Shown here piece after piece: positions 1,668 to 24,786 of a DNA stretch of 64,000 nucleotides. The notes beneath the pieces are model-generated. The model did no database searches. It worked only from the letters and a program-made list of their open reading frames with translations, and was not told the DNA's origin. The translations under genes and the position numbers were made by a program. Every line of letters starts with the position of its first letter. Position 1 is the stretch's first letter. The DNA comes from an uncultured Acidobacteriota bacterium (GTDB lineage: Bacteria; Acidobacteriota; Thermoanaerobaculia; Multivoradales; UBA5704), in contig OY969474.1 of NCBI GenBank assembly GCA_963700145.1, positions 32,001-96,000 of the forward strand. Direction: 5' to 3'.

Positions 1668-1681
1668 CTCAGAGCGCCGCC

Positions 1682-5434: not shown

Positions 5435-8124
5435 CAGTCGATCTCGAGGATGCGCAGCGACTCGATGCCGCGGTCGTCCACCATCTTGACCGCCACCTTC
5501 TGGCCGGGCGCGCCCGCGAAGGGCAGCGACACCGTGCCGCGGTAGGCCTCGATCGCCTCCTCGTCGATCTCGGCGCGCAGGCTCTTGGCGAGGCGCGCCC
5601 AGCCCTCGCCGTCGCCCGCCATCGGGAAGAACACCTGGCGCGGGAAGAGGCTGCGGTCGTCGTAGTCGGGGTCGAGCATCCAGAGCGCGATGCGCCGCAC
5701 GTCGCCCGACTCGATCTCGCCGGTCTTGGTGTTGTAGTAGTCGAAGCCCTGCACCTCGACCTGCCAGCTCCCGGCGTGCTCACCCTGCCTCGACGCGCCG
5801 CAGCTCGACGTCCGGCTGGCCGACCAGCCAGAAGGATCTCGTTGCTGGCGCGCTTCTTCTTGAGGTCGTCGGTCAGGAGGTCGGGTTCATCTGCGCCTTG
5901 AGGAGCGTCATGCCCGGCCTTCGCGGGCGTCAGCTCGTCGATGTCCTTGGCGGCCTCGGGGTCGAACTGGAAGGCGGCGAAGACGAGGAGGGCGGGCTTG
6001 GCATCGAGGGAGCGCGCCTCCTGCCAGGCGCGCTCGACCTGCTTCTGCTCCAGCGGCGCGTGCTCGGGGCCGAAGGAGACGACGACGCGCTGCGCCGCGC
6101 TCGCCGCGCCCTCGGCGACGTGGCCCGCGCCGGCGTCGTTGGGCAGCGTCTCGGCCTCGGCGTGGAGCCAGCGCGTGCCGGCGAGCGGCTCGACGCGGGA
6201 GAAGAGGATGCGCTGCCCCGACTTGCCGCGGATGCCGGTCTTGAGCAGCTCCTCGCGCCACTCGGCCTGGCGCAGCGTCGCGCCCGAGCGGGCGGCGGAG
6301 ACGTCCGGCGGCGGGTGCATCGGCGGCTCGTCCGCGACCGTCGAGCGGCTTGACCACCGGCGCCGGGCACCGCCTCGACGGTGAACGGGCCGGTGACGCG
6401 GGCCCGGCTCTTGTCAGCCTTCGGCTGGTCGTAGAGCGTCTCCTGATCGGCGTACTTGGCGATGGCGCGGTCGATCTCCGCGCGGCTCATCCCCTCGCGG
6501 ATCTCGGGGTTGTTGGCGATCGACTTGAGCGTGACGTGCGGGACGGTCTTGTAGACGAAGCCGCTGGCGACGCCTTCGTTCGGGTGCGCCAGCTCGTAGT
6601 AGTCGTAGACGCGCCGTCATGAGCCGCTGCTTGGCGAGGGCGATGGCGACGCGCGAGGTGTCGCAGGTGATCCAGCGACGGCCCCACTGCTCGGCGACGA
6701 AGGCGGTGGTGCCGGAGCCGCAGGTGGGATCGAAGACGAGATCGCCTGGGTCTGTGGTCATGAGGAGGCAACGGGCGACAACCTTCGCATTGGTCTGAAC
6801 GACGTAAATGCGGGCCTCCACAAACCCGCCGAGACCCGTATCTGTCCCACCAGTTGCTCAGGGGCCTATGGCCGAAGTCATCGTGATAGCGGACGTACGA
6901 AGGTGTGTTTCCAGAAAGCGGTCACGCGGCCTGCCAACTGTAAGTGACGCATCCCTTCGCGGTGTCGTTGCCCAATGTCGGCCGGCCGGCGGCCTGAACG
7001 TCCTCCCATCGATCTCGAGGGGATAGATGCATGTAGCGGATGATGCCCATGTTCGAGATCTGGTCGAGCCTGAAAGGACGAGCACCTTCGCGTCTGCACT
7101 TCGTCCTTGCTCGATTTCGTCGCGAGACAGTCGGCCGCTTGCCGGCAGATCCGTCTACAAATCGATACGGTGCTACTCGGGTCCCAGCGGTCGTTCTTGG
7201 TAAAGCTGCCGGTACTTCACACTTTTCTTGCTTCGTGCGTACCAGAGGATGTAGTCGGCGACAGTTCCCAGCACGATCGTCTTCGCAAACGGGCTGCTTG
7301 CCCCGCTGGTCTTCCTGAAGTTGATCACCGAACAGAAGTTCTCTGCGCCGAAGACCTCGTCCATCAACTCTCTAACGTGGTGCAGGTTCTCATCGCTGAT
7401 CTGCACGAAGATGGAGCCACTTTCGTGCAGGAGCTCTCGTGCTAGCAGATAGGCGGTCTCGAAGGTACGTCAGGTACGAGTGGATCCCCAGCTCCCACGT
7501 GTCTCGGAACGCCCGGATCATCTCCGGCTCCTGCGTCAGGTCTTCGTCCCTGCCGTCCTTCACGTCCCGCCGGTTGACGAAGGGCTGGAAGTTCGATCCG
7601 TACCGGATGCCGTAGGGCGGGTCGATGTAGATCATCTGCACCTTGCCCGCCATGCCCTCCTTCTCGAGCAGCGAGTTCATCACCAGCAGCGAGTCGCCCG
7701 CCACCATCCGGTTGCTCCAGCCGTGCGCGTGCTTGTAGAAATCCAGCGCCTCGCGCAGCGGCCGCTGCTCCTCCGGGCGCGCGAACATCGACATCTGCTC
7801 GGGGCCTCGCGCCGCATCGCCGTTGCGCTTGCGCACGGCTTCGAGCATCGTCTTCGGATCGATCCGCTCGTGAACGTGCAGCGACACCGTCGGCACCTCG
7901 AAGCTGGTGTGCTCGGCCTTGCCGGCCCAGACGAGCTGCGGGTCGAGGTGCGGGTCGTACGCGTACTTCTTCTTGCTCTCTTCGGGGTCGGTCTCGGGCT
8001 TCACCAGCCCGACCGGCGGATTGTTGAGGCGCGTCTCGTGCGTGTGCTCGTACTGCTCGATCGGCTTGCGCGAGCTTTTCGACCGACCGCCGTCGGTCTT
8101 CCTGGGACGTGGCATCCGGCGCAT
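5434..8124 (-). CDS. mod: Type III R-M DNA methyltransferase (Mod), several frameshifts
   Basis: Pieces join into one gene: [60 protein letters not shown]-terminal [21 protein letters not shown] overlap with res. Alternative start at 8115. Confidence 0.9.
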
Positions 8125-9898: not shown

Positions 9899-12484
9899 TC
9901 ACTCAGAGACCAGGTAGTAGCCCACGACGTCCAGCACGAGGTGGACCGTGCCCGCGGGCTGGTTCGCCCGTACGCTGACCGCTCCCGCCGCGCCGAGACG
10001 GACCATCGCGTTGTTGGAGCGGGCGCGGGTCGGGCCCGCGCGGTAGATAACGACGGAGCCCGCCGGGGGCGCCGTGTCGGCGGCGTAGACCTGGAGGTCC
10101 CCGTCGTCGGTGGCGCTCACCGCGGAGACGTTGAGGGCGACCGCCACGGCCTGGGCCGGGATGCCGCAGGTGCCGGCGAGCGGGAACGTGCGCTCGACGC
10201 CGGGGGCGAGCGCGGGACCGCCCTGCGGGCCTGCCGAGTCCCGCGTATCCACGAGGCGGCACGGTGTCAGCGTGAAGAAGTCGGCCGGCCGGTCGGGCCC
10301 GCTGATCTTTAGTAGAAAGCCGCTGGAGGCCGCGCTGGCGTCCGGGTCGAAGCTGGGCAACCCTCCGATGCCGTCGCCATCGGGGAAGCTGGTCTCGCTG
10401 GAGTGGGTCTGGCCGACGACATAGGCGGCGCCGGCGCCGTCCACGGCCACGCCGAACGCATCGTCGGTATCGACAGAGCTGCCGCCGATGTAAGTGGCAA
10501 AGAGCAACGGCGTCCCGCTCGCCGCCACCTTGACGACAAAGCCGTCGCCGTTGAGGTTGTACGTCGTGTCGGGGCCCGTAAGGCCGCCGAAGCCGTCGCC
10601 GTCGGGTAAGGTCGCCTGCGTGGAGCCGGTGTGGCCGACGACGTAGGCATTGCCGGCCGTGTCGAGGGCGACGTCGAAGGCTTCGTCGGTGGAGCTGCCG
10701 CCCAGGTAGCTGGCCCAGACGAGCGCCGCGCCCGCAGCATTCACCTTGGCCACGAAGGCATCCTCCATCCCGCCGTTGTGGGTCGTGTCCGCCCCGGTGA
10801 GAGCGCCGAAGCCGTCGCCGTCGGGGAACGTCGCCTCCGTGGACTGAGTCGTACCGACGAGGTAGGCCTCGCCGGTCGGAGCCACGGCGAGGCCGCCGGC
10901 CGCCCTTTCGTATGAGGCGCCGCCGACGTAGCCGGCGTAGAGGAAGGCCGTTCCCGCCGCGTCGATCTTGGCGATGAAGGCATCCGCGAGGCCGTTGTGC
11001 GTCGTGTCCGGTCCGCTGAGGGCGCCGAAGCCGTCGCCGTCGGGGAAGGTCGCCTGCGTCGACATGGTCGTACCCGCGAGGTAGGCGTTGCCGGTCGAAT
11101 CTACGGCGACGTCGGTGGCGCCATCGGTGCCGAGGCCGGCGCCGCCGATGTAGCCGGCGTTGAGGAACGCCGTGCCCGCGGCGTTCACCTTGACGAAGAA
11201 GCCGTCGTCGTACGACCCGTTGTAGGTCGTGTCCGGTCCAGGAAGACCGCCGAAGCCGTCGCCGTCGGGGAAGGTCGTCTCGGTGGAGTTGGTGACGCCG
11301 GCGACGTAGGCATTGCCGGCCCCGTCCACGGCGATGGAGTTCGCCCTATCGGAACCGGAGCCGCCGACGAAACCCGCATAGAGCAGCGAAGTGCCGGCGG
11401 CATCGAGCTTGGCGACGAAGCCATCGGAAGCTCCGCCGTTGAAGCTCGTGTCGGGTCCGGAGACGGCCGGAAACCCCGTACCGGTCGTGTCTCCGGCAAC
11501 GTAGACATTGCCGGCCGCATCGATCGCGAGGTCAGCGATCCAGGAGACGCCCTGGAAGTAGGCGGTCCAGAGAACGGCGGTGCCGGCCGCATTGATCTTG
11601 GCGACGTAAACCAGGGTGCTGGAAGACCCGGGTGGGTGATAGTCGCTGATGCAGGCCGCGTAGGCATTGCCCGCCCCATCCACGGCGACCGCCGAGCAGG
11701 CGTCGTAGTCGAACTCCGGGTCGAAGTTCCTCCCGAAGAAGCCGGCGTAGACGAAGACCTCGGGGTCGATGAGCAGCGGCAGGCGAGGGTCGTAGGCGCC
11801 GAGTCGGAAGCCGTGGCTGCCGCCGGCGGTGTCGAGGTCGTAGGCCGTCGCGACCTCGACCGCGCGGCCGCCCACCGTCTGGAAGGAGACCGGCCGCGCG
11901 TCGTGGAGGCTTCCCGCGGGCGTTTCGACCTCGAGCTCCCCCCGGGCGTTCACCGCCAGTCGCGTGGCGCCGCGATAGGCCAAGCGGATCCGGCGCGGAT
12001 CGGCGCCGGGGCGCACCAGGAGCTCGTACTTCAGCCGCCCGGCGGCGCCGGAGAAGATCAGGTCGATCCCCGGCCAGAGGTCCGGGTAGACCAGCCGGGA
12101 GTAGGTCGGGATCCCGGCGCGCCAGCTCGCCGGCTGGCCCTGGAAGTAGCTCACCACGGCCGGCGTTCTGGCCTCGGCCCGCGGCTGGACGTCGCGGGCG
12201 GCTCCCACGAACTCCAGGCGCAGGGCGTCCGGTGGCTCGGCTCCCCGCGCCTTCGAGTGGAGGAGGAACGTCAGCGCCTGCGCCGTGAAGGAGAGGGTCT
12301 TGTCCCGGTCCTGGACGTAGTAGGCGACGTGCGGGTCGGCCTGGCCGCGGTTCTCGATGAAGGAGAGCGGTAGGCGTGCCAGCGCGGCCTCCTGCCGCAC
12401 GTTCCGGGCGCCAGCCGGCGAGGCGCCGGCAGCGAAGCCGAGGAGGGAGACGATGAGGGCCGTCCAGGCTTCGCGACTGCGCAT
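9899..12484 (-). CDS. Secreted SBBP beta-propeller repeat protein with C-terminal TPCRLVDTR domain
   Basis: LPLSFIENRGQ N-domain, repeated AVDxAGNAYVxGxT and FPDGDGFGxLxGPDTTxNG units, C-terminal FFTLTPCRLVDTR...HLVLDVVGY. Start 12484 gives a signal peptide. Confidence 0.88.
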   Translation of the reverse strand: MRSREAWTALIVSLLGFAAGASPAGARNVRQEAALARLPLSFIENRGQADPHVAYYVQDRDKTLSFTAQALTFLLHSKARGAEPPDALRLEFVGAARDVQPRAEARTPAVVSYFQGQPASWRAGIPTYSRLVYPDLWPGIDLIFSGAAGRLKYELLVRPGADPRRIRLAYRGATRLAVNARGELEVETPAGSLHDARPVSFQTVGGRAVEVATAYDLDTAGGSHGFRLGAYDPRLPLLIDPEVFVYAGFFGRNFDPEFDYDACSAVAVDGAGNAYAACISDYHPPGSSSTLVYVAKINAAGTAVLWTAYFQGVSWIADLAIDAAGNVYVAGDTTGTGFPAVSGPDTSFNGGASDGFVAKLDAAGTSLLYAGFVGGSGSDRANSIAVDGAGNAYVAGVTNSTETTFPDGDGFGGLPGPDTTYNGSYDDGFFVKVNAAGTAFLNAGYIGGAGLGTDGATDVAVDSTGNAYLAGTTMSTQATFPDGDGFGALSGPDTTHNGLADAFIAKIDAAGTAFLYAGYVGGASYERAAGGLAVAPTGEAYLVGTTQSTEATFPDGDGFGALTGADTTHNGGMEDAFVAKVNAAGAALVWASYLGGSSTDEAFDVALDTAGNAYVVGHTGSTQATLPDGDGFGGLTGPDTTYNLNGDGFVVKVAASGTPLLFATYIGGSSVDTDDAFGVAVDGAGAAYVVGQTHSSETSFPDGDGIGGLPSFDPDASAASSGFLLKISGPDRPADFFTLTPCRLVDTRDSAGPQGGPALAPGVERTFPLAGTCGIPAQAVAVALNVSAVSATDDGDLQVYAADTAPPAGSVVIYRAGPTRARSNNAMVRLGAAGAVSVRANQPAGTVHLVLDVVGYYLVSE

Positions 12485-12696
12485 GCGACGCGAAGCTACC
12501 ACGCCGGCGGCAGCGAGTGCAGCAGCAGGAGCTTGACGTGGTCGGTGAATCTTAGTATTTTTGTACCAGACTCCGCGGTACATCGATGCAGAGCGGCGCA
12601 AGAGCCCGGGTTGCGTCTGGGTAGCCTTACAGGCACGGACAATCAAATGACATCTGGACGTGATCTGCCAAACTCGTTCCGAAAAGAGGTTGGGCG

Positions 12697-13983
12697 GTGA
12701 AAGAGAAGGACTGGGGCACGCTCCTTTGGAGTTTGCAGCGTCGCAACTGCATCCTTCTTCTGGGACCAGAACTCACGGCCGAAGGCCTGCCGGGAAGCAC
12801 GACGCTTACCGGGGAACTCGCGCGGCAGCTCGCAAGCGATATCGAGCCGCCTTTGCTGGCGACGACGGACTTGCCGCGCGTCGCACAGCAGTACCTTGCT
12901 CAGAATGGTCGCAACGACCTGGAACGAGAAGTTGTCCGTTTCTACGCGGCGCACGAGGACGACTCGTCGGAGATCCACGAAGCGCTCGCCGCCGTGCCGT
13001 TTTACTTTGCCATCACGTCATGCCACGACAGCCTGCTACGGCGCGCCATGGAGAGGGCGGGTAAGGCCCCCTTCGCCGAGCGGTACAACTTCCAGGGCGA
13101 CAAAGAGGACAACGTCCCGATGGGGACGGTTGACCGCCCCCTGATCTATCACCTCTACGGCTCCATCCAGGAGCCGGAATCGCTCGTACTCACCGAAAAC
13201 GATCTTCTCGATTTCCTGGTAGCAGTCGTATCGAAGAACCCATCGCTGCCGGACAACGTCCGCAGTGCGCTGCAGAAGAAGGGCAAGAATTTTCTCTTCC
13301 TCGGCTTCGGGATCAGGCACTGGTATCTCCGCATCCTGCTCCACCTCTTAAAGTTCAATCAATCCGACAGTCGCTCGTTCGCCCTTGAGGCATTTCAGGC
13401 CCAGAACTTTCCGGACCTCGAGCAGACGGTCCTCTTCTACAAGACCGGCTTCAAGATCGAGGTGTTCGACACCGAGATCGAGACCTTCGTCCAGGAGCTC
13501 CGCGAGCGCTACCAGGCGATGTCGCCCTCCCTCGAGGCGCCGCCGTCCGGCAGGGGCCTGCGCCAAGCGCGCGTCTTCCTCTCCTATGCCAGTGAGGATC
13601 AAGCGACCGCCAGACGGCTGTGCCAGGAGCTGCGAGAGGGCGGACTTGATCCCTGGATGGACAAGACGGGGCTCGGCCCGGGGGTGGAATGGGACGGGAT
13701 GATCGAGGAGAAGCTCGAGGAGGCGGACTATGTCTGCGTCCTCCAGAGCCGGGCCCTTGCGGACAAGAGATTCAGCTACGTCAACAAAGAGATCAAGCTT
13801 GCCCTCGAGCGCCAGAGGTATGCCCAAAAGGGAGTGCTCTACCTCATCCCTCTCCAGATCGACGACGGTCCACGATTGGACATCCTCAAGGAGCTCGAAA
13901 CCTTGTCGCTGCGCGACGATGACGCGGTCAGGAGTTTGGTCACCACGATCAAGCGGGACTTCCAGCGCCGCGGAAGGCAGTAG
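12697..13983 (+). CDS. SIR2-like (degenerate) domain + C-terminal TIR domain protein
   Basis: CILLLGPEL, ITSCHDSLL, LIYHLYGS...LVLTENDLLDFL and FLFLGFG (SIR2_2-like). VFLSYASED...PWMDK...YVNKEIKLALE (TIR, catalytic-type Glu retained). Confidence 0.85.
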   Translation: MKEKDWGTLLWSLQRRNCILLLGPELTAEGLPGSTTLTGELARQLASDIEPPLLATTDLPRVAQQYLAQNGRNDLEREVVRFYAAHEDDSSEIHEALAAVPFYFAITSCHDSLLRRAMERAGKAPFAERYNFQGDKEDNVPMGTVDRPLIYHLYGSIQEPESLVLTENDLLDFLVAVVSKNPSLPDNVRSALQKKGKNFLFLGFGIRHWYLRILLHLLKFNQSDSRSFALEAFQAQNFPDLEQTVLFYKTGFKIEVFDTEIETFVQELRERYQAMSPSLEAPPSGRGLRQARVFLSYASEDQATARRLCQELREGGLDPWMDKTGLGPGVEWDGMIEEKLEEADYVCVLQSRALADKRFSYVNKEIKLALERQRYAQKGVLYLIPLQIDDGPRLDILKELETLSLRDDDAVRSLVTTIKRDFQRRGRQ

Positions 13984-13985
13984 GG

Positions 13986-16900
13986 ATGGCCGCCACCTTC
14001 CACTCCCGCTACCCCGGGGCGCGCTCCTTCCAGGACGATGACGTCGATCGCAAGCTCTTCCGAGGCCGCGACAGAGAAAAGGAATCTCTGCTGCACCTGG
14101 TGCTCGCCGAGGATCTCGTCGTCGTCTACGCGAAGTCGGGCATGGGAAAGACGTCGTTGCTCAACGCAGGGCTGATGGAGCCGCTGCGCGAGGAGGGGTA
14201 TCTGCCCATGAGTGTTCGTCTGAACGACCCCGCGGCGGGGCCCTTCCGGACGCTCTACGACGGCATCGCCGAAAAGGCCACCCAACAGGGAATCGAGCAC
14301 GTCTCTGGCGACGAGACCTCGCTGTGGCACTTCTTCAAGACGCTCGAGCTGTGGCGCGGCGACGATCTGCTCACGCCGGTGCTGATCCTCGATCAGTTCG
14401 AGGAACTCTTCACCCTGCAGTCGCGCGCGAACCGGCGCGCCTTCATCGACCAGCTCGCGGACCTGGTCCGCGGCAAGGTGCCTCAAGACCTCGCCGAGAG
14501 CCGCGGCCTCGAGGACGATCGCCGTTTGAGCCCCTCCGCACCCCTGATCAAGGTGGTGCTCGCGATCCGCGAGGACTTCCTCGGCAACCTGGAGGAGCTG
14601 GGTCGCAAGATTCCGAATATCTTGAATACCCGCTTCCGCCTCGGCCCGCTCAGTCGAGACGAAGCGCGGCGGGCGATCAGCGAGCCGGCGCGGGTTCTCG
14701 ACGAGCAGATCCCCACCGCGCGCTTCGACTACGAGCCCGCGGCCGTCGAGGCGATCCTCGACTTCCTCGCCGAGCGCCATCTGCAAGGGGGGGTCGACAC
14801 CACCCCCGAGATCGAACCATTCCAGCTCCAGCTCATATGCCAGCACGTCGAGTCGATCGTGGCTGCGCGCCAGGCGGCCTCCGGAGCCGTAGCGCCGATC
14901 ACTTACGACGACCTCGGGGGAGACGCTGGCATCTACGAGATGCTCAAGGGATTCTGTGACAGCCAGATCGGGGCGATCGCGGACACCTACGGCAGGCGCG
15001 CGCTTTACCGGCTATGTGAGCAGGGGTTGATCAGCCCGCACGGCCGCCGCCTGAGCCTCGAGGAGGGCGAGATCGAGCGCCGATTCCGTGTGCCCAAGGA
15101 AGCCCTGCACCACCTGGTGAACCGGCGCCTCCTCAGAGCTGAGCCGCGGCTCGGGAGTTTCTCCTACGAGCTAAGCCATGACACCTTGGTCGCGCCGATC
15201 CTCGCCTCGCGCGAGCGCCGTGCGCGGTCCCGGCGACTATGGGCAGGCGGCGCGGCCCTCGCGGCGGTGCTCGTCGTGGTCGCCGTCTTCGGCAGGCGCG
15301 GCTACGTCCATGGGCAAGAGGATGCCCTGGCCGACGACGCGCGACGGATCGGCGAGTACCTAGCGAGCGATCCCCCGCGGGCCCTCGTCCTGGCTGTGGA
15401 CGCGACCGGCCGTAGCCTCTCGCTCTACGGCGAGCCCACGCCCCAAATCTCCCTCGAATTGGCCAAGGTGGTCGAGAAGGCCCGCTTTACGCGCTCACGG
15501 ATCCTCCAGGAGATGCAGCCAACGGCCAGCGCCCTCGCCCCCGGAGGAGAGATCGCCGCGACCGGGACCGAGGATGGCAGGATCGTTCTCTACGATACCG
15601 CAGGTAACCGTCTGCGCGAGCTCGCTCCAGCCGGGGGAGGGCCGGTCACGCAACTTGCGTTCAGCCCCGGGGGCCAATGGATCGCAGCGGTGACAGGGGA
15701 GCGGCTGCGGCTCTGGAGCCGGGAGGGCCGGTCCGAAGGCCATCCCTACGCGGTCACGGGCGGCGTGCGGGCGATCGCCTTCCGCCCGGGCGACGACTGC
15801 TTGGCCGTGGCCACACCAGCGGGGCTGCGCCTTCTGGAGATCGCGAAGAAGCGGTGGAGCGGCGGGAAGCCGCAGGGCGGAATTACGCGCTTGACCTTCA
15901 GTCACGACGGCGAGCGGCTGCTCTCTTTGCATCAGGACGGCACGGCTCGCGTATGGGGCGTGCCCTCGCCGGGGGCGCTGTCCAATGCGAGCAGCGCCCT
16001 GGCGGTGATCAGCTCGCCCAATGATTGGTCGTTCGGCGGCAACCGGCGGGCCCTACTTAAGCCTGATGGGATCTGGATCGGGGACCGCGGGACCAGGCGT
16101 CTGCGCCCGCTCACAGGGATCGGCGAGAGCCCGACATCGCTGGCCCTGAGCCCCGACGGCAAGAGCATCGCTGTTGGATTGTACGCCGGCGGTTTCGAGC
16201 TGCATCGCCTCGAAAAAGAACGCAAGGCAGCGAAGGCCACTGGCAGCGCCACCCCTGCCACCGCCGGCTCCAAGGCAGTCGCGACGCGGATCTTCGAGAA
16301 GCCTCAGGGCACTGCTACGACGGCGCTGGCTCTAGATTCGACGACGGACTTCGCGGCGACCGGCGAGGCTGACGGCACGATTACGTTTTGGAACCGCACA
16401 ACCGGAGATTTCACGGCTCAGGAGAGAGCTCACGAGGGTTATATCTTCGCCCTCGCCATCGATCGCAAGGAGCACCGGCTGATCAGCGGTGGCAGCGATT
16501 GCGCAATCAGAATCTGGAGCCTCGATCGTAAGCTGTTGCGTGATCTCACGCGCAGCGGCGAGAACTGTGCAGTGATGGGTCTAGCCGTCCACCCAGGGGC
16601 GGAGTTTTTCGCCCTTGGTGACCGGGCAGGACATATCGAGACGTGGAGCTTCGACGGCCGACGCCTCTCGTCGTCCACAAGCGAGCCGGTTCTCGCCCTG
16701 GCGATAGGCCCCAAGGGCGTCGTGAGCTCGGCGCACTTCGACGGCGCAGTGCGTGAATGGTCAACCGACCAGGGCCGAGATCTCTCCCTACTCGACGAAG
16801 TTCCTGCTCCCCATCTGCTGATGACGGCCGCAACCTTTGCCCCGGATGGCGCCATCGTGCTCGGCGGTGAGGACGGCCGCTGGCGGATGGTTCCCCAGGA

Positions 16901-19900
16901 GAGCTACATGCAGGATCCGGGCGACGGTGTGATCAGGTTCGACGAGAGCGGCGAAGGGGTCAAGACGCAGGATGCCCACAAGGCGGCTGTGCAAGTCCTG
17001 GCCTTCAGCTCGGACGGCCTGAGCCTGGTTAGTGGCGACGCGGTGGGCGGCCTGCGCCTGTGGAGCGCGGAGGGTGAGCTGCTAAGTGACCCCATCCCGG
17101 GCCGGGGGTCGCCCACGACTGCCGCCGGCTTCAGCGGCGATGGCGAGAGCGTGCTGGCCCTTGCCCGTGACCTCACGCTGACAATCTGGGACCGCCACGG
17201 CATGAACCCACCGGGTGTTCCGGAGGCTCAGATCGGCGAAGGCTTTGGTCTCGCTATCGATCCTAAGGGAGCATTTTTCGCCACGATCTCTGACAGTGGC
17301 GACGGCAAGCAGTTGGCCGTATGGGATCTGCATACAGCCCGGAAGCTGAGCTGGTCTAGCGAGATCGAGCAGTGCTCGCCTGCAGGCATCGCCATCCGCC
17401 CGGACGGGTTGGGGATGGCTGTCGGCTGCGAGGACGGGCATATTGCCATGGTGGATGCTTGGTTGGACGAGCTGCCCAGCGCGTCCAAGAAGCCGGGCGC
17501 CGCCGTCCGGGCACTCGCCTTCGATCCACAAGGGCAGTACTTTGCGGCCGGCGACGACGATGGAAGGCTGGGCCTCTGGGACGCGCGAGGGAGGCCTCTC
17601 GCCGCGCCGCCATGGCCGGCGCATGCGGGTCCCGTGCTCGCGCTCGCGGTAAGCCCGGACGGCAACTGGATCGCTAGCGCCGGCGGCGAGGCGCCACCCG
17701 CCGGCGCTGGAGCGGTCCGCAAGGACGACTCCAACGTCAAATTGTGGAACCGTTGGAAACCGGGCGAGGTCGTTTGGCCACGTCCCTGGAATGTTCTCTC
17801 CAGCCACCCGCGTCGCGGCATCAACTCCTTGGCCTTTAGCCCCGACGGTAGAACCCTAATCACCGGCGGGGATGACGGGATGGTCCGCTTCTGGAACGTC
17901 GAGGACGGCACGGAGCAGCAGATCCTGGAGACCCAGGGAGGTCGCGTCGCCTCGGTCGCCTTCAGCCCCGACGGTACGCAAATCCTCACCGCGGGCTTCG
18001 ACGGCAACCTCCGGCTCTGGGATCTTCAGCGTAATCTGCTCGCGCTGGCCCTCCCCATCCGCGCCAATGCCGGGCCTGGAGAGGAGTTAGCCGTTCAGGC
18101 GGCCTTTGCCCCCGGGGGAGACCTCCTCGTCAGTAGCGCGGCGCAGGGGAGGTCACTGCTCCGGCGAGGGAGCTGGCGCGGGTGGCTGCAGGTCGCCTGC
18201 CATCGCCTGCGCCGCGATGATGGCTGGCGCCGTCCCAGCCTACCCGGCGAGCGCAAGGCCCGAGAAACCTGCGAGCGGTGGGCTGGGCCCGACGACGATC
18301 CATGGAGCGGGCTGGCATCCGCCGGACAGGCACCGCCGGGCTCCACGCCCCTCCATCGGGCTGTCGTGATGGGGGTTGTGGGAGACGTGACGTCTCTGCT
18401 CCTCGAGGGGCAGGACCCCAACGTCCGCGATGCAGCGGCCCGGACGCCGCTCGCCCTTGCGGTTGCGGCGGGCCGTGCCGAGGCGGCCCGGGCGCTCCTC
18501 GCCAACCACGCGGATCCCAGGCTCGGGGACGGCTTCGGCGACACCCCCCTCCACCAGGCCGCCGCCCGCGGTGACTCGATGGTGATCGACCTCCTCCTTC
18601 GCGGCGGGGCCGCGCCGGGCGCACGCAACCGCTACGGCGTGACGCCCCTCATGAACTCGGCCCATCGCGGCCATGCGGCCGCTGCCCGGGCGTTGCTCGA
18701 CAAGGGGGCTCCGGTCGACACGGCGGATGACGGAGGAAACACCGCCTTGATGGACGCTGCCAGAAATGGCCATCTGGATCTTGTGGAGCTATTGATCGCG
18801 CGAGGAGCCGACATCAACCGGGAGAATCGGACTCCGGCGCGGATGACCGCCCTGCGCTGGGCGAGGTACGGAGGACATTCCGGCGTTGTCGATTTCCTCC
18901 AAGCGAAAAGTCTGCGCGTCAGCGAAGACCTGCCCACGGCCGTCCAGCGCATCCACCTGGCGCGCTATGCTCCCGCCCACCTGCGGCCGGCTGCCGCGAC
19001 GCTGGGGCGCTGGTGGACACCGATCCGGAACGAAGTCAGCATGCGGACTTTCCGCTCGGTCCGCGCGATCGCCGAGCAAGGCGACAGCTTTGCGCAGTTC
19101 CTGGTGGGTTACGCCTTGGCGCGGGGGCTAGGAGTCGGCCGCGATCCGGACGCCGCCCTGATTTGGTACCGCCGATCGGCCGAACAGGGCGACCCGCTCG
19201 GCCAAGCCGCGCTCGGGATGGCCTACTGGACGGCCGAAGGTCCGCGTACGCGGCAGGACATGCAACAGGCCCTGCTCTGGAACCAACGATCCGCGGCGCA
19301 GGGTCATCCCGTGGGCCACTGGAACCTCGGCAACATGTACAGCCAGGGTATCGGGGTCGAGAACTCCTCCGGGACCGGCGCCCTCTGTTCTTACCTAGAG
19401 GCCGCCCGCGCGCAACTCGCAGACCTTGTTTGCAGCCCCCCAGTTCCGGCCCAACGCCAATGGGCGCGCGCCGATCCCGCCGCGATCAATTCCGTCGGCT
19501 GGAGTCTCGACAACGGTGCGGGTTACAGAGAGGACTCGCAAGCTGCTTTCGCCTACTTCCGGCGGGCCGCTAGCCAAGGGGACCTGGTCGCCCAGCGCAA
19601 TATCGGCTCGATGTGGCTCTATGGAAGGGCTGTCCCGAGATCTCTCGCGCAAGCCCACGTGTGGCTGCGGCGGGCGGCCGACCAGGGGCACGGCGGTGCC
19701 ATGTCTCTCCTAGGCCATAGCTACCTCTATGGCTTAGGGGTCCCGGCCTCTGCCGTCGAGGCCCTGAGTTGGTACAGACGGGGCGGCGAGGCCGGCAATC
19801 GTTCGTCTCAGCGCCAGACAGGTTGGATGCTGGAGCGCGGCCTCGGGGAGGAGCGGTCGCTGGTCGCCGCCGTGGGCTGGTACCGAAGAGCCGCCGCGCA

Positions 19901-19952
19901 AGGCAGTATTCCCGCCACCCAGAGACTCGAGAGTCTGGGGATAAAGCCGTGA
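13986..19952 (+). CDS. nSTAND1-type NTPase - TM helix - WD40 - ankyrin - Sel1 repeat protein (NLR-like), 1988 aa
   Basis: YPGARSF...FRGRDRE, Walker A YAKSGMGKTSLLNAG, Walker B LILDQFEELF, YELSHDTL, TM LWAGGAALAAVLVVVAVFG, many AFSPDG..WD repeats, TPLHxA/TALMDAA ankyrins, and A..WYRRSAEQG Sel1 repeats. Confidence 0.92.
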   Translation: MAATFHSRYPGARSFQDDDVDRKLFRGRDREKESLLHLVLAEDLVVVYAKSGMGKTSLLNAGLMEPLREEGYLPMSVRLNDPAAGPFRTLYDGIAEKATQQGIEHVSGDETSLWHFFKTLELWRGDDLLTPVLILDQFEELFTLQSRANRRAFIDQLADLVRGKVPQDLAESRGLEDDRRLSPSAPLIKVVLAIREDFLGNLEELGRKIPNILNTRFRLGPLSRDEARRAISEPARVLDEQIPTARFDYEPAAVEAILDFLAERHLQGGVDTTPEIEPFQLQLICQHVESIVAARQAASGAVAPITYDDLGGDAGIYEMLKGFCDSQIGAIADTYGRRALYRLCEQGLISPHGRRLSLEEGEIERRFRVPKEALHHLVNRRLLRAEPRLGSFSYELSHDTLVAPILASRERRARSRRLWAGGAALAAVLVVVAVFGRRGYVHGQEDALADDARRIGEYLASDPPRALVLAVDATGRSLSLYGEPTPQISLELAKVVEKARFTRSRILQEMQPTASALAPGGEIAATGTEDGRIVLYDTAGNRLRELAPAGGGPVTQLAFSPGGQWIAAVTGERLRLWSREGRSEGHPYAVTGGVRAIAFRPGDDCLAVATPAGLRLLEIAKKRWSGGKPQGGITRLTFSHDGERLLSLHQDGTARVWGVPSPGALSNASSALAVISSPNDWSFGGNRRALLKPDGIWIGDRGTRRLRPLTGIGESPTSLALSPDGKSIAVGLYAGGFELHRLEKERKAAKATGSATPATAGSKAVATRIFEKPQGTATTALALDSTTDFAATGEADGTITFWNRTTGDFTAQERAHEGYIFALAIDRKEHRLISGGSDCAIRIWSLDRKLLRDLTRSGENCAVMGLAVHPGAEFFALGDRAGHIETWSFDGRRLSSSTSEPVLALAIGPKGVVSSAHFDGAVREWSTDQGRDLSLLDEVPAPHLLMTAATFAPDGAIVLGGEDGRWRMVPQESYMQDPGDGVIRFDESGEGVKTQDAHKAAVQVLAFSSDGLSLVSGDAVGGLRLWSAEGELLSDPIPGRGSPTTAAGFSGDGESVLALARDLTLTIWDRHGMNPPGVPEAQIGEGFGLAIDPKGAFFATISDSGDGKQLAVWDLHTARKLSWSSEIEQCSPAGIAIRPDGLGMAVGCEDGHIAMVDAWLDELPSASKKPGAAVRALAFDPQGQYFAAGDDDGRLGLWDARGRPLAAPPWPAHAGPVLALAVSPDGNWIASAGGEAPPAGAGAVRKDDSNVKLWNRWKPGEVVWPRPWNVLSSHPRRGINSLAFSPDGRTLITGGDDGMVRFWNVEDGTEQQILETQGGRVASVAFSPDGTQILTAGFDGNLRLWDLQRNLLALALPIRANAGPGEELAVQAAFAPGGDLLVSSAAQGRSLLRRGSWRGWLQVACHRLRRDDGWRRPSLPGERKARETCERWAGPDDDPWSGLASAGQAPPGSTPLHRAVVMGVVGDVTSLLLEGQDPNVRDAAARTPLALAVAAGRAEAARALLANHADPRLGDGFGDTPLHQAAARGDSMVIDLLLRGGAAPGARNRYGVTPLMNSAHRGHAAAARALLDKGAPVDTADDGGNTALMDAARNGHLDLVELLIARGADINRENRTPARMTALRWARYGGHSGVVDFLQAKSLRVSEDLPTAVQRIHLARYAPAHLRPAAATLGRWWTPIRNEVSMRTFRSVRAIAEQGDSFAQFLVGYALARGLGVGRDPDAALIWYRRSAEQGDPLGQAALGMAYWTAEGPRTRQDMQQALLWNQRSAAQGHPVGHWNLGNMYSQGIGVENSSGTGALCSYLEAARAQLADLVCSPPVPAQRQWARADPAAINSVGWSLDNGAGYREDSQAAFAYFRRAASQGDLVAQRNIGSMWLYGRAVPRSLAQAHVWLRRAADQGHGGAMSLLGHSYLYGLGVPASAVEALSWYRRGGEAGNRSSQRQTGWMLERGLGEERSLVAAVGWYRRAAAQGSIPATQRLESLGIKP

Positions 19953-20092: not shown

Positions 20093-22168
20093 ATGCAGGA
20101 CCTCGAAGCCCGCGTCAAAGCGGCGGTTGCCAAGATCGAAGGCCGCGATCCCAAGCTGGCCGATGAGCTGAACGAGCTCCGCGGGAGTGCGAAGACCAAG
20201 AAGGAAGCCAGGGCCCTGGCGCCGGCGATGGCCCTGCGGGGGCTCGCACTGGAGGGGGCGGCTCCCAGGCCGGCGGTCGCGCTCGAAACGATCGTGCTGC
20301 GGGTCGGCCGCCCGGTGCTGGCGGTCGTCCGCGACGAGGCCCTCCTCGAGTTCCAGGACGCGGAGAGCGAGATCTGGCGGCAGCGGCTGACCGACGCGCG
20401 CGACCGCCTGGTGCCGGCCATCAAGGCGGTCGGCCGCATCGAGGTGGAGAACCATCCACGGTTCGAATGGCTCGGGACCGGATGGCTGGTCGCCGACGAC
20501 GTCGTGGTGACGAACCGGCACGTGGCGCGCGAGTTCGGCCGCGGCAGCGGCTCCGGCTTCGTCTTCCGGCCGGGCCGGGCCAACCGGCGGATGACCGCGT
20601 CGATCGATTTCCTGGAGGAGTTCGACCGCCCCGAGAGCCTGGAGTTCCGCCTGCGGCGCATCCTGCACATCGAGGGCGACGGCGGACCCGACGTGGCGCT
20701 GCTCCAGGTCGAGCCGGTTGCGGGAAGGGGCCTGGCGGCGCCGATCAGGCTCGGCGTCCGGAGAGGCGCGGGAGGAGCAGCAGGTGGCCGTGATCGGCTA
20801 TCCGGCGAAGGACAGCCGGATCCCGGACCAGCAGCTCATGCAGGACATCTTCGGCGACGTCTTCGACAAGAAGCGGCTGGCGCCGGGCCAGATCACCGGC
20901 AGCGCGGGCCACGAGCTCGCTGCACGACTGCTCGACGCTCGGCGGCAACTCCGGCTCGGTGGTGCTCGACCTCGAGACCGGCGAGGCGCTCGGTCTCCAC
21001 TTCGCCGGCCGCTTCCTGGAGGCGAACTTCGCGGTGCCCGCCGCGCTCGTCGCGGAGCGGCTGCGGCGGCTCGGCCGCGAGGGTGCGCGCCCCGCCGCGG
21101 CGCGCCCGCCGGCCGGCGCGCGCGGCACTCTCCAGTCGCGCTCCGGCGGCGCCACGGCCTCCGTCGACGACGATCAGCCTACACGATCCCGGTCCGGGTC
21201 ACGGTGGACATCGGCGCTCCGGTCGCCGGCGAGCCGGCCGGGCGCGCAGGGCACGCCACCCGGCGCTCCTCGCGCCGACCCCTGCCGACGTGGGCGACGA
21301 CGAGGACGAGATCCTCCTCGACGTCGAGGCGCGGCCGGAGGACTACGCAGACCGGCCCGGCTACACGGCCGGGCTTCCTCGGCTACGGGTTCGAGGTCGC
21401 CGCTGCCGGCGCTGGGCGCGGAGCTGGAGAGCGACCTGCTCACCTTCGAGGTCGACGGGGAGACGGAGAGCGAGCTCCGCTACCAGCACTTCTCGGTCGT
21501 CATGAGTCAGAGCCGGCGCCTCTGTCTCTACAGCGCGGTGAACATCGACGGCGACCAGTCGCGGAAGGTGAAGCGCACCGGATGGCGGCTGGACCCGCGG
21601 ATCGCCCAAGGAGGCGCAGATCCTCCGCGAGTGCTACGGCAACGCGCCCAAGTTCAGCCGCGGCCACATGACGCGGCGCGAGGACCCGATCTGGGGCTCC
21701 GCAGGGGACGCCAAGCTCGGCAACGCCGACTCCATGCACGTCACCAACGCCGTGCCGCAGATGCAGGTCGTTCAATGCCGGCATCTGGCTCGGCCTCGAG
21801 GACTACGCCCTCGACAACGCGCGCGAGGACGACATGCGGATCTCGGTGTTCACGGGACCGTTCCTGCGCGACGACGACCCGGTCCGCTTCGGCGTCCAGG
21901 TCCCGCGCGACGTTCTGGAAGGTCATCGCGTTCGTCCACGACGAGACGGGCGAGCTCTCCGCCACGGGCTACACGATGTCGCAGGACGACTTCCTGCGCG
22001 AGGAGGAGTTCGTCTTCGGCCAGCACGAGACGTCGCAGGTGCCGATCGTCGCTGATCGAGCAGCGGACCGGGCTGTCGTTCGGCGACCTCGCCTCCCGCG
22101 ATCCGCTCGGCGAGGTGGAGGAGGCCCTGCCGGCGCCGCTGACGGATTTCCGGCAGATTCGGTTCTAG
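20093..22168 (+). CDS. Trypsin-like serine protease fused to NucA/EndoG-type non-specific endonuclease (frameshifted in this assembly)
   Basis: RBS AGGAGG. Protease triad TNRHVA / PDVALL / HDCSTLGGNSGS. Nuclease part: LRYQHFSVVMSQSRRLCLYSAVNIDG, WRLDPRI, FSRGHMTRREDP, TNAVPQ..FNAGIWLGLEDY, VFTGP, FWKVI, IEQRTGLSF. The pieces lie in different frames. Confidence 0.85.
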
Positions 22169-22197
22169 GTAGTTCTACCTTCAAGGGAGGTCTCTCC

Positions 22198-23130
22198 ATG
22201 CCTCATGTCACGTTCGTCCACGGCATCGCCAATAAACCCCCGACGGACAAGCTGCTGGACCTCTGGCGGCGCAGCCTGGCGGAGTCCGACGGCCCCGACC
22301 TCGGCAGCGAAGGGGTCACCAGCTCGATGGTCTACTGGGCGGACGTGTTGTACGCCGAGCCGCTCAAGGAGGGCATGGAGGAGAGCGCCACGGACGAGTC
22401 CACGGTCGAGGCCGTGTCGCCCGAGTCCCCGGACCTCGGCGTCGAGAACATGGACGCCGCGGAGCAGCTCTGGGTGGCCGAGCTCGCGGTCAAGCTGGCC
22501 GTCCCGCTCGCCGCCGAGGAGGCGGTCGAGGCCCTGCCCACGCCCGTGCGCGAACAGCTCGAGCGCATCCCCCTGCCCTGGCCGGTCAAGGAGCGGCTCA
22601 TGCGGCGCCTCCTGCGGGACGTCCACCACTACCTCTTCAACGTCGACTACAGCCCACGGCCGGGAGAGACCTTCAAGGTGCAGGACGAGATCCGCGGGCG
22701 GATGATCAAGGCGTTGCAGGAGGGCGCGACCATGCCCGGCCCCCACGTCGTGATCAGCCACAGCATGGGCACGGTGATCGCCTACGACTGCCTGAAGCGA
22801 GTCGGCGACGCACCCGTGGTGGACGGTCTGATGACCATCGGCAGCCCGCTCGGAATCGACGAGGTCCAGGACAAGCTGCGGCCGGAGTGGAGCCGGGACA
22901 ACGGCTTCCCGCACGAGAAGGTCCGCGGCAAGTGGATCAACGTCTACGACCGTCTCGATCCGGTGGCCGGCTTCGATCCGAGCTTCGCCAACGACTACCG
23001 GCGCGGCGGCCAGAGGACGGTCGAGGACGTCAACGAGCAGAACTCCGGCTCGTGGCGCCACAACGTCAGCAAGTACCTGAGCGGGGCGCAGCTCCGGGCA
23101 CGCGTGCGCGAGATGCTGGGCTTGGAGTGA
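22198..23130 (+). CDS. Alpha/beta-hydrolase (lipase-like)
   Basis: RBS AGGGAGG. MPHVTFVHGI, nucleophile elbow ISHSMGTVIAYD, MTIGSPLG, WINVYDRLDPV, C-terminal His (WRHNVSKY). Confidence 0.85.
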   Translation: MPHVTFVHGIANKPPTDKLLDLWRRSLAESDGPDLGSEGVTSSMVYWADVLYAEPLKEGMEESATDESTVEAVSPESPDLGVENMDAAEQLWVAELAVKLAVPLAAEEAVEALPTPVREQLERIPLPWPVKERLMRRLLRDVHHYLFNVDYSPRPGETFKVQDEIRGRMIKALQEGATMPGPHVVISHSMGTVIAYDCLKRVGDAPVVDGLMTIGSPLGIDEVQDKLRPEWSRDNGFPHEKVRGKWINVYDRLDPVAGFDPSFANDYRRGGQRTVEDVNEQNSGSWRHNVSKYLSGAQLRARVREMLGLE

Positions 23131-23136
23131 ACGACG

Positions 23137-24786
23137 ATGGACACGCCCTGGAACGAGGACGAGTTCCTGACCGAGCTGACCGCGGTCGTCGAGCGCTTCA
23201 ACCGCGACGGCGCGGCCAAGCTGTGCAATGAGCTGATCGCCGCGCTGCATCAGGGAGCGCTGCCGAGCGCCAAGGCGGCGAAGAAGATCCTCCAGGTCTT
23301 GCGCCGCAAATGCCACTTCGACCTGATGGAGCGGGTGACGGAGGCCCTCCGCCTCGTCGGGCTCGACGAGAACCAGATCCGCCGCCAATACGCCCAGTCG
23401 CTCATCGACCAGGGGAAGGCCGCGGCGGCCATCGACGTCCTGGAGTCGCTGATGGCGCGGACGGAAGGGAAGGACCCGGCAGAGCACGCGGAGGCGCGCG
23501 GCCTGCTCGGCCGCGTCTACAAGCAGCTCTACGTCAATGCGGTCAACGCCGACCCCGAAGCCAGGCGCTCGCGGCTGAGCCAGCTCAACCTGCAGCGGGC
23601 GGTGAACGCCTACCACGAGGTCTACCTGTCGGGCCCGGCCGATCACCTGTGGCACGGCATCAACACGGTGGCGCTGGTCTTCCGCGCGCGGAGGGACGGC
23701 GTGCAGCTCGATCCGGAGCCGGACGCCGAGACGATCGCCCGGGAGATCCTGGCGGCGCTCGAGGCGCGCAAGGAGCAGGGGGCGATCGGCTACTGGGACA
23801 TGGCCACGGCGGCGGAGGCGAGCGTGGCGCTCGCGGATTTCGGCAAGGCGCTGCTCTGGGTCGCGGAATACGTGCAGCAGGCCGACGCCGACGCCTTCGA
23901 GCTGTCGAGCACCGAACGCCAGCTGCGGGAGGTCTGGGGGCTGACCGTCGAGAAGCCGCCCGGCTCTCTCCTCCTCCCGTTGCTCCAGGCCCACATCCTT
24001 CAGCGCAAGGGCGGCCGGGTCGAGGTGCCGCAAGGGAGCCTGGGCGCGACGATAGAGCGCGCCGGCGACCTACGGCTGGAGAAGGTCCTCGGCAGCGAGG
24101 GATTCATGACCCTGAAGGCGTACCGGGAGGGGCTGGAGCGCTGCCGGCTCGTCGCGCAGGTGAAGACGCGGACGGACGAGGGCTTCGGCACCGGGTTCCT
24201 GATCCGCGGCAAGGACCTCGACGATCGGTTCGGCGACGAGCTTCTCGTGCTGACCAATGCCCACGTGGTCAGCGATGATCCGGCCGTCCGGGCCGCCAAG
24301 GGCTCGCTGCCGGCCGAAGATGCCGTCGTCGTGTTCGAAGCCCTGGAGTCGGCCGCCGATCAGGAGTATCAGGTCTCGCTCCTGTGGTCCTCTCCTCCCG
24401 ACGAGCTGGATGCGACGCTGCTGCGGATCGATCCGCCGATCACCGGCCTGACGCCCTATCCGGTCGCGAAGAACCTCCCGCTGGGTGACGGCAAGCAGAA
24501 GGTCTACGTCATCGGCCATCCCGGCGGTCGTTCGCTCTCCCTCTCGCTCAACGACAACCTGCTGCTCGACTACGACGACCGGCTGCTGCACTACCGTGCT
24601 CCCACCGAAGGGGGCAGCTCGGGAAGCCCGGTCTTCAACAACCAGTGGAAACTGATCGGTCTCCACCACGCCGGAGGCTTCGGCCTGCAGCGCTTGAACG
24701 GCAAGGAGGGGACCTACGACGCCAACGAGGGCATCCAGATCCAGAAGATCATCGTCGCGATAAAAGAGGCGGCGATCGGCGGCTGA
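23137..24786 (+). CDS. TPR-S/DUF4071 (MAP3K TRAF-binding-like) domain + trypsin-like serine protease
   Basis: N-part: ARGLLGRVYKQ, AVNAY, WHGINTVAL, YWDMATAAEA, ELSSTERQLR. C-part: GTGFLI, TNAHVV, LDATLL, IGHPGG, TEGGSSGSPVFN, LIGLHHAG. Confidence 0.88.
   Translation: MDTPWNEDEFLTELTAVVERFNRDGAAKLCNELIAALHQGALPSAKAAKKILQVLRRKCHFDLMERVTEALRLVGLDENQIRRQYAQSLIDQGKAAAAIDVLESLMARTEGKDPAEHAEARGLLGRVYKQLYVNAVNADPEARRSRLSQLNLQRAVNAYHEVYLSGPADHLWHGINTVALVFRARRDGVQLDPEPDAETIAREILAALEARKEQGAIGYWDMATAAEASVALADFGKALLWVAEYVQQADADAFELSSTERQLREVWGLTVEKPPGSLLLPLLQAHILQRKGGRVEVPQGSLGATIERAGDLRLEKVLGSEGFMTLKAYREGLERCRLVAQVKTRTDEGFGTGFLIRGKDLDDRFGDELLVLTNAHVVSDDPAVRAAKGSLPAEDAVVVFEALESAADQEYQVSLLWSSPPDELDATLLRIDPPITGLTPYPVAKNLPLGDGKQKVYVIGHPGGRSLSLSLNDNLLLDYDDRLLHYRAPTEGGSSGSPVFNNQWKLIGLHHAGGFGLQRLNGKEGTYDANEGIQIQKIIVAIKEAAIGG

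Follow-up and report, generated by a model that had tools for sequence, protein, structure and literature searches.

Introduction

Does a protein that joins a degenerate SIR2 fold to a TIR domain supply the effector for a neighbouring STAND (signal transduction ATPase with numerous domains) protein that carries none of its own? The question is raised by two adjacent genes at positions 12,697 to 19,952 of a 64,000-nucleotide (nt) stretch of contig OY969474.1 (assembly GCA_963700145.1) from an uncultured bacterium of the phylum Acidobacteriota; this whole stretch is called the window. Gene A (protein P0001) encodes the SIR2-like/TIR protein, and gene B (P0002) a protein of the nSTAND1 family with WD40, ankyrin and Sel1 repeats. 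The computational analysis inclines slightly towards a two-gene conflict module resembling the NLR (nucleotide-binding leucine-rich repeat) receptors, in which a membrane-anchored nSTAND1 protein is switch and sensor and a pseudo-SIR2/TIR protein is the effector in trans. Its role is probably anti-phage or anti-invader.

Conservation of the Gene Pair

One genome per species was scanned, and 51 loci with the SIR2-TIR gene were obtained from many phyla, including Acidobacteriota, Aminicenantes, Desulfobacterota, Pseudomonadota, Actinomycetota, Bacteroidota, Nitrospirota and others. In 47 of the 51 loci the next gene downstream, in the same orientation, is a STAND gene (query, the first 420 residues of gene B; E values from 1e-129 to 1e-10). 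The inter-gene gap, measured with a longest-ORF (open reading frame) caller, had a median of -4 nt and lay within -120 to +20 nt in 40 of these 47 loci. Among the loci without a STAND gene, L043 reaches the contig end and L042 and L049 hold broken SIR2-TIR fragments; the fourth, L002, is considered below. Clustering of all flanking ORFs of the 51 loci yielded no third recurrent gene, the third-largest cluster being made of antisense shadow ORFs. The search for a conserved gene pair, proposed as a check in a sequence-only reading of this DNA, therefore returned a pair in which only two genes recur, and this conservation supports the proposal that the effector of a two-gene STAND system is placed on a separate protein.

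In the window, both reading frames are open. Gene A encodes 428 residues from a GTG start, preceded at 7–8 nt by AAGAGG and supported by an N-terminus that lines up with those of homologues (MKEKDW / MRERDW). Gene B encodes 1988 residues from an ATG start, and the junction TAG-GG-ATG confirmed that it begins 2 nt after the stop codon of gene A; together with GGAAGG about 9 nt upstream of this ATG, the junction is consistent with coupled translation.

The SIR2-TIR gene is frameshifted or truncated in loci L034, L047, L049, L051 and L042, and both genes of the pair are decaying in L034, L047 and L051. Wherever a STAND gene is present beside a broken SIR2-TIR gene it is also truncated, which suggests joint decay. 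A profile of the SIR2-TIR family matched 1418 clusters (50% identity) at E ≤ 1e-30. Eight atypically long proteins among the best 150 of these matches were scanned for variant architectures: P0232 carries SIR2, TIR and nSTAND1 in one chain, together with a second TIR; P0135 carries an inserted EAD8 adaptor domain, which separates the SIR2-like part from the TIR; P0163 and P0140 have an added N-terminal CHAT domain and ParA/MinD-like domain, respectively; in the others the extra part is a SPASM domain or a further SIR2 or TIR, except for one that showed SIR2_2 and TIR_2 only.

The SIR2-Like and TIR Domains of Gene A

The Pfam matches of gene A were SIR2_2 at residues 106–230 (E 1.4e-15, 58.1 bits against a cut-off of 24.5) and TIR_2 at residues 293–414 (E 5.7e-21, 75.7 bits against a cut-off of 28). 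With the AlphaFold model (mean pLDDT 82.2), the top Foldseek matches of the SIR2-like half were ThsA (5e-15), KomC/HAM-SIR2, DSR2 and Avs5. Structural neighbours of this part include entries titled as helical or filament assemblies (BcThsA 8bto, KomBC 9v0g, Avs5 9nc9 and 9jap). The TIR fold is supported by matches to TIR-APAZ and AbTIR chains.

The catalytic residues of defence-type SIR2 NADases are the Asn of TTNYD and the His of KxHG (N112/H152 in ThsA, N133/H171 in DSR2). HMMER alignment to ThsA chains placed TTNYD over TSCHD of gene A, with Cys109 (13021–13023) at the position of the Asn, and KLHG/KMHG over HLYG, with Tyr154 (13156–13158) at that of the His; the GAG nucleotide loop reads GPE (residues 23–25). 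Both motif deviations, already pointed out from the sequence, were thus borne out and proved to be family-wide. They were followed in an alignment of 234 sequences, comprising all proteins of 380–520 residues from the family searches, the window protein and P0123, a second copy encoded in the same genome. The Asn position was occupied by T (112), C (40), S (39), A (17), R (9), N (4) and rarer residues, and the His position by Y (166), F (40), C (8), L (7), H (7), Q (4) and N (2); the second Gly of the GAG loop was D in 116 and E in 74 sequences (D/E in 190), and G in 21.

The Glu of YVNKE in the TIR half, which had been described as retained, is Glu365 (13789–13791). It aligned with Glu77 of TIR-APAZ chains such as 8ifk, which we take to be their catalytic residue, as well as with the Glu of the AbTir-type chain 7uxr, and was Glu in all 234 family members. 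As judged by the alignment, the SIR2 half is devoid of the canonical catalytic residues throughout the family and the TIR half keeps the catalytic Glu. The invariance of this Glu argues for enzyme activity, and the TIR domain is likely to be the NAD+-cleaving part of gene A.

It might be proposed that the SIR2-like domain has a remodelled site and still works in ligand binding or catalysis, for example by binding a TIR product or another nucleotide and so gating the module, or by performing a different chemistry. Family-specific residues (Cys18 in 224/234, Trp209 in 224/234, Arg212 in 229/234) and a nearly invariant Asp111 agree with this idea, as does a mean pairwise identity of 0.39 in this half, about that of the TIR half (0.40). 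It is nevertheless considered improbable, given that G-P-D/E stands where the pyrophosphate-binding GAG loop should be, the residue at the Asn position varies, Tyr or Phe usually takes the place of the His, and the conserved residues could equally form a docking surface.

TIR-Less Relatives and Proposed Origin of the Pseudo-SIR2 Domain

Pairs of a TIR-less SIR2 gene and an nSTAND1 gene, with the gene order and NTPase clade of the window pair, were found in Nonomuraea, in Ensifer and in three genomes of the phylum, their SIR2 domains being related to gene A at 28–35% identity. In Nonomuraea gerenzanensis (NZ_LT559118.1) a 292-residue SIR2_2 protein is encoded 10 nt ahead of an nSTAND1-TPR gene; in Ensifer adhaerens pB (NZ_CP098809.1) the SIR2_2 protein has 318 residues, and an nSTAND1 gene comes next. 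At both places, which are unannotated, only the SIR2-like half of the query was matched. The Ensifer nSTAND1 protein has a transmembrane (TM) helix at residues 482–500 and then a PQQ_2/BamB-type propeller, an order of helix and propeller shared with the window pair.

These pairs differ from that of the window in having no TIR and in the state of the SIR2 motifs. GAGA/GAGV and TTNYD are kept in all five TIR-less genes compared (L061, L062, L068, L069 and L070) and HLHG in four of them, L069 reading HLYG; in the five TIR-fused genes (P0001, P0123, L064, L066 and L067) the GAG, TTNYD and HLHG motifs are all lost. The TIR-less pairs look like an active-SIR2 version of the module, and the contrast suggests that the TIR took over catalysis while the SIR2 fold stayed for docking. 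A maximum-likelihood tree of the SIR2 domain (26 rows, unrooted) placed the TIR-less genes on one side of a branch (support 100/99) and the TIR-fused genes in two groups, an unrooted arrangement that leaves the number of TIR gains unfixed. On these sequence comparisons, the simplest reading is that a module of active SIR2 and nSTAND1 gained a TIR, after which the SIR2 site would have decayed and the fold been kept. Of the earlier suggestion that an inactive SIR2 acts as an adaptor, the loss of catalytic residues was thus established over the 234 sequences, and the adaptor role gained comparative support from the TIR-less relatives.

The NTPase, Predicted Membrane Helix and Repeats of Gene B

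The nSTAND1 match of gene B spans residues 9–402 and profile positions 2–341 (E 1.2e-34, 121 bits against a cut-off of 27.1), and the same profile was matched in 8/8 partner proteins scanned. Gene B accordingly begins directly with its NTPase, as had been noticed from the translation, with no space for an N-terminal effector. Walker A (SGMGKTS, residues 51–57, nt 14136–14156) and Walker B (LILDQFEE, with Asp136) fall in columns that were invariant across 33 partner sequences. A model of the first 440 residues (pLDDT 93.8, pTM 0.89) retrieved with Foldseek ORC2/Cdc6 (E 1e-08), NLRC4, Apaf-1, ZAR1 and wheat resistosome chains, and the modelled fold shows the AAA+ core, helical domain and winged helix of the ORC/Cdc6-STAND type. 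A sequence search of the PDB with the NTPase profile gave no chain better than E 0.3.

Directly C-terminal to the winged-helix end of this module, the only strongly hydrophobic stretch of gene B forms a predicted TM helix (residues 418–436), with the Arg-rich RERRARSRR on its N-terminal side. The set of partner proteins consisted of 47 ORFs, 9 of them cut or truncated and 38 complete, in which helices were called by hydropathy. A TM helix stands at the equivalent place in 33 of the 38 complete partners: 21 with one helix and a large C-terminal region, one with one helix and a short tail, seven made only of the NTPase and a two-helix hairpin (about 500 residues), and four with 5–6 helices. The 15 residues flanking the first helix contain on average 4.8 K+R on the NTPase side against 1.7 on the far side, with the higher count on the NTPase side in 34/37 partners; this bias fits an N-in, C-out orientation. 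With the helix right after the NTPase, the WD40-Ank-Sel1 part is predicted to lie outside the cytoplasm, and a STAND protein predicted to span the membrane would not be a cytosolic sensor of the Avs/bNACHT kind.

In the C-terminal part of gene B the WD40 match (E 2.1e-63) has its best stretches between residues 754 and 1399, and earlier repeats can be seen in the translation. The corresponding regions of the partners appear swappable: TPR arrays are found in L007, L003 and L032, the WD40-Ank-Sel1 order of gene B recurs identically in L018, and no known family was matched in L022 and L001.

The roles of the two proteins could also be the reverse, the SIR2-like/TIR protein sensing the trigger or making a signal and the membrane STAND protein acting as an executioner that damages the membrane on oligomerisation. 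The pair would then resemble the membrane-spanning effectors of other TIR or cyclic-nucleotide systems, and its constant parts are indeed the SIR2-like domain, the TIR, the NTPase and the first TM helix; the hairpin-only, multi-helix and short-tailed partners (7, 4 and 1 of the 38) have nothing beyond TM helices and no obvious sensor. This arrangement is nonetheless judged unlikely. Long swappable repeat arrays (TPR, WD40-Ank-Sel1), the usual pattern of STAND sensors, occur in 21/38 partners, the Walker motifs are intact as in switch ATPases, and in the TIR-less relatives an NTPase of this clade goes together with a seemingly active SIR2, which is a typical effector; the STAND partner in L061 has no TM helix at all.

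Proposed Mechanism

In the favoured arrangement, with gene A as effector, gene B would be a cytoplasmic nSTAND1 ATPase anchored by one helix, its repeats serving outside the cytoplasm as the sensor. Gene A would act in trans, with a SIR2 fold retained to dock on, or polymerise with, the NTPase. A trigger at the envelope or membrane would lead to nucleotide-using oligomerisation of the NTPase on the inner membrane face, and then to clustering of pseudo-SIR2-TIR protomers and assembly of TIR active sites; NAD+ depletion or production of a signal nucleotide would follow, with growth arrest or cell death as the result. We infer in this way the binding, topology, NADase activity, trigger and outcome of the module.

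More tentatively, the pair may be a prokaryotic outside-in innate immune receptor, that is, a STAND/NLR ATPase with ligand-binding repeats across the membrane that signals inward to a TIR NADase through a pseudo-enzyme SIR2 polymerisation adaptor derived from the enzyme with which the system began. The triggers might then be phage adsorption or injection, a foreign surface or secreted molecule, or, for the hairpin-only forms, membrane perturbation, and this too is put forward with reserve. If true, the pair would be a functional analogue of Toll-like receptor/TIR signalling on an NLR chassis. Receptors with repeats outside, one TM helix and inside signalling are represented by animal Toll-like receptors and by bacterial Ser/Thr kinases with extracellular propellers or PASTA domains. 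The predicted layout of the window pair is alike (repeat ectodomain, single TM helix, cytoplasmic part engaging a TIR), as an analogy only: unlike in Toll-like receptors, a STAND ATPase forms the cytoplasmic part, the TIR sits on its own protein and is probably enzymatic, and no homology to leucine-rich repeat ectodomains is claimed.

The characterised bacterial STAND/NLR-like defences (Avs, bNACHT) are, to our knowledge, cytoplasmic proteins that include their effector in a single chain and detect phage proteins within the cell. The pair departs from them in three ways: the effector is separate, a former enzyme fold seems to be kept as a coupler, and the switch is predicted in the membrane with the sensor outside. 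The module would make two matters testable, namely envelope-level innate immune receptors in bacteria and the origin of a pseudo-enzyme during effector exchange. Since the family is large and spread over many phyla, one successful test would annotate many genes.

Assessment of the Proposed Module

The association of the two proteins was assessed by complex prediction with the NTPase domain (residues 1–415) and gene A, each with its family alignment. An ipSAE of 0.43 was obtained (runs 0.45/0.43/0.41), against 0.00 for the best of three controls; the runs agreed in at least 85% of contacts, with a partner pLDDT of 76. In the calibration, the mark was reached by 58/80 solved complexes and by 2/110 mismatched pairs, and the range of ipSAE ≤ 0.60 held only 7 of the 80 solved complexes and both mismatches. 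The structure prediction that had been suggested for SIR2-TIR with the NTPase thus scored above its controls, at a low value rated as weak support and with no interface reported. As the prior from gene coupling is strong, the score was taken as mildly supportive, no more, of binding of gene A to the NTPase domain.

This weak pass is one of several points that count against the module as proposed. Distances of gene A and of the NTPase are correlated (Mantel r 0.86, with 0/2000 permutations as high; 0.85 for the SIR2-like half and 0.74 for the TIR half; 40 pairs), which shows co-inheritance of both proteins, a result that linkage alone could produce. In locus L002 the SIR2-TIR gene is intact, the genes after it are unrelated and no STAND gene lies within 10 kb. 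The conserved Cys18, Trp209 and Arg212 could belong to a ligand site or a newly formed active site instead of a docking surface. That gene B spans the membrane with the sensor outside is predicted from hydropathy and the positive-inside rule alone, and WD40 and ankyrin repeats of the canonical kind are better known from the cytoplasm. Five of the 38 complete partners have no TM helix by hydropathy and 12 have no repeat sensor, so that neither the outside sensor nor the membrane anchor is universal. Neither PADLOC nor NCBIfam has a model for the pair or for its NTPase part, and no published experiment on any member of the pair was found. Finally, the defence-island context in the window is thin, the restriction-modification matches described below being fragmentary or weak.

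Base Composition and Distribution

The G+C content is 71% for the whole window, 0.61 for gene A, 0.677 for gene B and 0.70–0.71 for the flanks. Both genes show the codon-position pattern of real genes, with a third-position G+C content (GC3) of 0.80, above the values for the first and second positions; the genome median is 0.946, and a value no higher than 0.80 is found in only 149 of 2146 long ORFs (the lowest 7%). The impression from the sequence that the pair is more A/T-rich than its flanks was correct, the effect being moderate. Similarly, the 211-nt intergenic region upstream of gene A is indeed lower in G+C (0.578), and it is divergent, as also claimed, only if the minus-strand neighbour starts at the ATG near 12484. 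In this region (12486–12696) one sigma-70-like match was found, at 12533–12561, against 0.6 expected, which is not above chance, and the promoter and terminator scan gave nothing above shuffled expectation.

The NTPase domain as query matched 8 of the 401 genomes of the phylum, its own included, and none of the genomes searched from the same family or order. A SIR2-type gene stands directly upstream in 7/7 of the other loci of the phylum (three SIR2-TIR, three TIR-less, one cut at the locus end). A tree of the cassettes mixes phyla. No phage record matched P0001, and three plasmid records matched it partially, two of them being TIR-less relatives. The tRNA-Phe at 1592–1667, 11 kb from the pair, the restriction-modification-like fragments, the TPR-S/trypsin gene downstream and the low GC3 fit a mobile island.

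The same genome (5.46 Mb, one contig) contains a second, diverged cassette at C1:4781138-4785965. Its first protein, P0123, has 451 residues with SIR2_2 and TIR_2, 29% identity to gene A, the motifs SLTFD and FHLLG, and the TIR Glu kept; the following P0124 has nSTAND1, a TM helix and about 14 very regular WD40 repeats. With a GC3 of 0.96–0.97, near the genome median, this cassette looks long resident. A search of the genome with P0001 gave 15 matches at E ≤ 0.001 (14 besides its own gene), of which 12 rest on the TIR part. TIR-domain genes are abundant in this genome.

A purpose other than anti-phage defence, either outside-in signalling or self/non-self recognition (kin discrimination, developmental cell death, envelope stress) with the TIR mainly as an interaction domain, could be argued from the predicted position of the sensor outside the cytoplasm, the many TIR-domain genes, the native codon usage of the second cassette and the link between nSTAND1-type systems and bacteria of multicellular habit drawn by the Aravind group (PMC8195603, PMC7159879, in the available parts of these papers), but is the least probable of the alternatives, as the invariant TIR Glu argues for enzyme activity and the patchy distribution, the mixing of phyla in the tree and the atypical composition fit a mobile, defence-type gene set.

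Comparison with Known Systems

A published description or name for the SIR2-TIR/nSTAND1 pair was not found in the literature, although supplementary neighbourhood tables may list it. The NCBIfam assignments of gene A (retron TIR, Thoeris type III ThcB4, Dsr2) were weak TIR-only or SIR2-only matches far below their cut-offs, and those of PADLOC (ThsA, ThsB, SAVED-TIR, Aga-TIR, Dsr2) were single-domain matches only, so that the pair was not assigned to Thoeris, DSR or systems associated with prokaryotic Argonautes. Nor was an already named system with an active SIR2 found, which would have contradicted the sequence-only reading: the SIR2 is without its catalytic residues, and no model or paper names the pair.

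The nSTAND1 domain was named by Kaur, Iyer, Burroughs and Aravind (eLife 2021, PMC8195603; Pfam PF20703). In the available part of that paper it is tied to proteins bearing Death-like or effector-associated domains (EADs), and SIR2 occurs once, in a different system. The counter-invader systems described there share with gene B the NTPase clade (121 bits) and, as far as the same part goes, the logic of effectors such as TIR, a STAND switch and variable repeat sensors; they carry Death-like/EAD adaptors, whereas the window pair has no EAD and its effector is a separate pseudo-SIR2/TIR protein. EAD-coupled STAND systems have the same EAD on effector and NTPase, and no EAD was present among the Pfam matches of gene A. 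SIR2 is not mentioned in the main text of Kaur et al. 2020 (PMC7159879). Periplasmic sensor domains are predicted for some STAND proteins in the accessible part of a 2023 preprint on targets of diversity-generating retroelements, and a 2026 preprint on ParA systems contains one mention of nSTAND1 and none of SIR2.

Avs5 (AVAST type 5, SIR2-STAND; PDB 9nc9, 9jap) also combines a SIR2_2-type domain with a STAND protein, and the SIR2-like model of gene A matches its fold. Avs5 joins the two in one chain, with the SIR2 N-terminal to the STAND part, in contrast to the two ORFs of the window, which are separate in 47 loci. The SIR2 of Avs5 is an active NADase; that of the window is without the Asn, His and GAG and carries a TIR, its NTPase is nSTAND1, and the partner is predicted to span the membrane. 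More generally, gene A has the SIR2_2 profile and fold of defence-type SIR2 NADases, and neither their catalytic Asn and His nor the GAGxS loop.

Thoeris (ThsA, SIR2-SLOG; ThsB, TIR) uses the same two NAD-related folds as gene A. ThsA is the best match of the SIR2-like half in both sequence and fold, and ThsB models match the TIR half weakly, so automatic annotation could mislabel gene A as Thoeris-like. Thoeris, however, has SLOG or Macro domains and a separate ThsB, whereas genes A and B have no SLOG or Macro match, a fused TIR and a STAND partner. The module is best filed as an unnamed variant of the STAND/nSTAND1 conflict systems, and not as a member of Thoeris, Avs5 or DSR.

Coordinates of the Features

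Table 1. Features of the gene pair, with nucleotide positions in the window.
Feature	Position	Strand	Evidence
Divergent intergenic region upstream of gene A, G+C 0.578	12486..12696	.	G+C count, promoter scan
Gene A (P0001), SIR2-like domain fused to TIR domain	12697..13983	+	Pfam, homologue alignment, AlphaFold model
SIR2-like (pseudo-SIR2) domain, residues about 1–275	12697..13521	+	Pfam, HMMER alignment, Foldseek
TIR domain, residues about 291–414	13567..13938	+	Pfam, alignment
Gene junction TAG-GG-ATG	13981..13988	+	Sequence; 2-nt gap; median gap -4 nt in 47 related loci
Gene B (P0002), nSTAND1 NTPase, one predicted TM helix, WD40, ankyrin and Sel1 repeats	13986..19952	+	Pfam, hydropathy
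nSTAND1 NTPase module, residues 9–402	14010..15191	+	Pfam, invariant alignment columns, model
Predicted TM helix LWAGGAALAAVLVVVAVFG, residues 418–436	15237..15293	+	Hydropathy 2.31
WD40/beta-propeller region, about residues 520–1400, start approximate, predicted extracytoplasmic	15543..18185	+	Pfam, translation
Ankyrin repeats, residues about 1466–1637	18381..18896	+	Pfam Ank_2 1522–1614; PADLOC PDC-M72A 1466–1637
Sel1 repeats, residues about 1702–1988	19089..19949	+	Pfam Sel1 E 1e-36, 5 stretches, best 1702–1736

Neighbouring Genes

Upstream of the pair, the minus-strand gene 2621–5434 encodes a 937-residue protein with weak type III restriction-enzyme matches, and 7390–8124, also on the minus strand, a 244-residue fragment of a type III methyltransferase (E 1e-46, profile positions 76–252 of 983); a stretch of lower G+C, about 0.60, lies at 6500–8000. 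The region 1592–8124 may represent the remains of a restriction-modification system that lies at a genomic-island boundary. The product of 9899–12484 (minus strand), the immediate neighbour of gene A, looks secreted and has DUF7948 and SBBP beta-propeller repeats. The start of this gene is likely the ATG near 12484, where a signal-peptide-like N-terminus begins, and not the listed TTG at 12646.

Downstream of gene B, ORF 20093–21505 has weak Trypsin_2 and PADLOC 'nacht'-accessory matches, 20959–23130 an Endonuclease_NS match, and 23137–24786 matches to TPR-S, MAP3K_TRAF_bd and Trypsin_2. The first two ORFs overlap, and between 20650 and 22200 the maximum of third-position G+C moves to another frame about every 150–300 nt, a pattern for which broken genes, short genes on both strands or indel errors are possible explanations. 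These trypsin, Endonuclease_NS and TPR-S genes were ruled out as parts of the system, no third gene being recurrent in the 51 loci, and the genes of 20093–24786 are probably a separate system.

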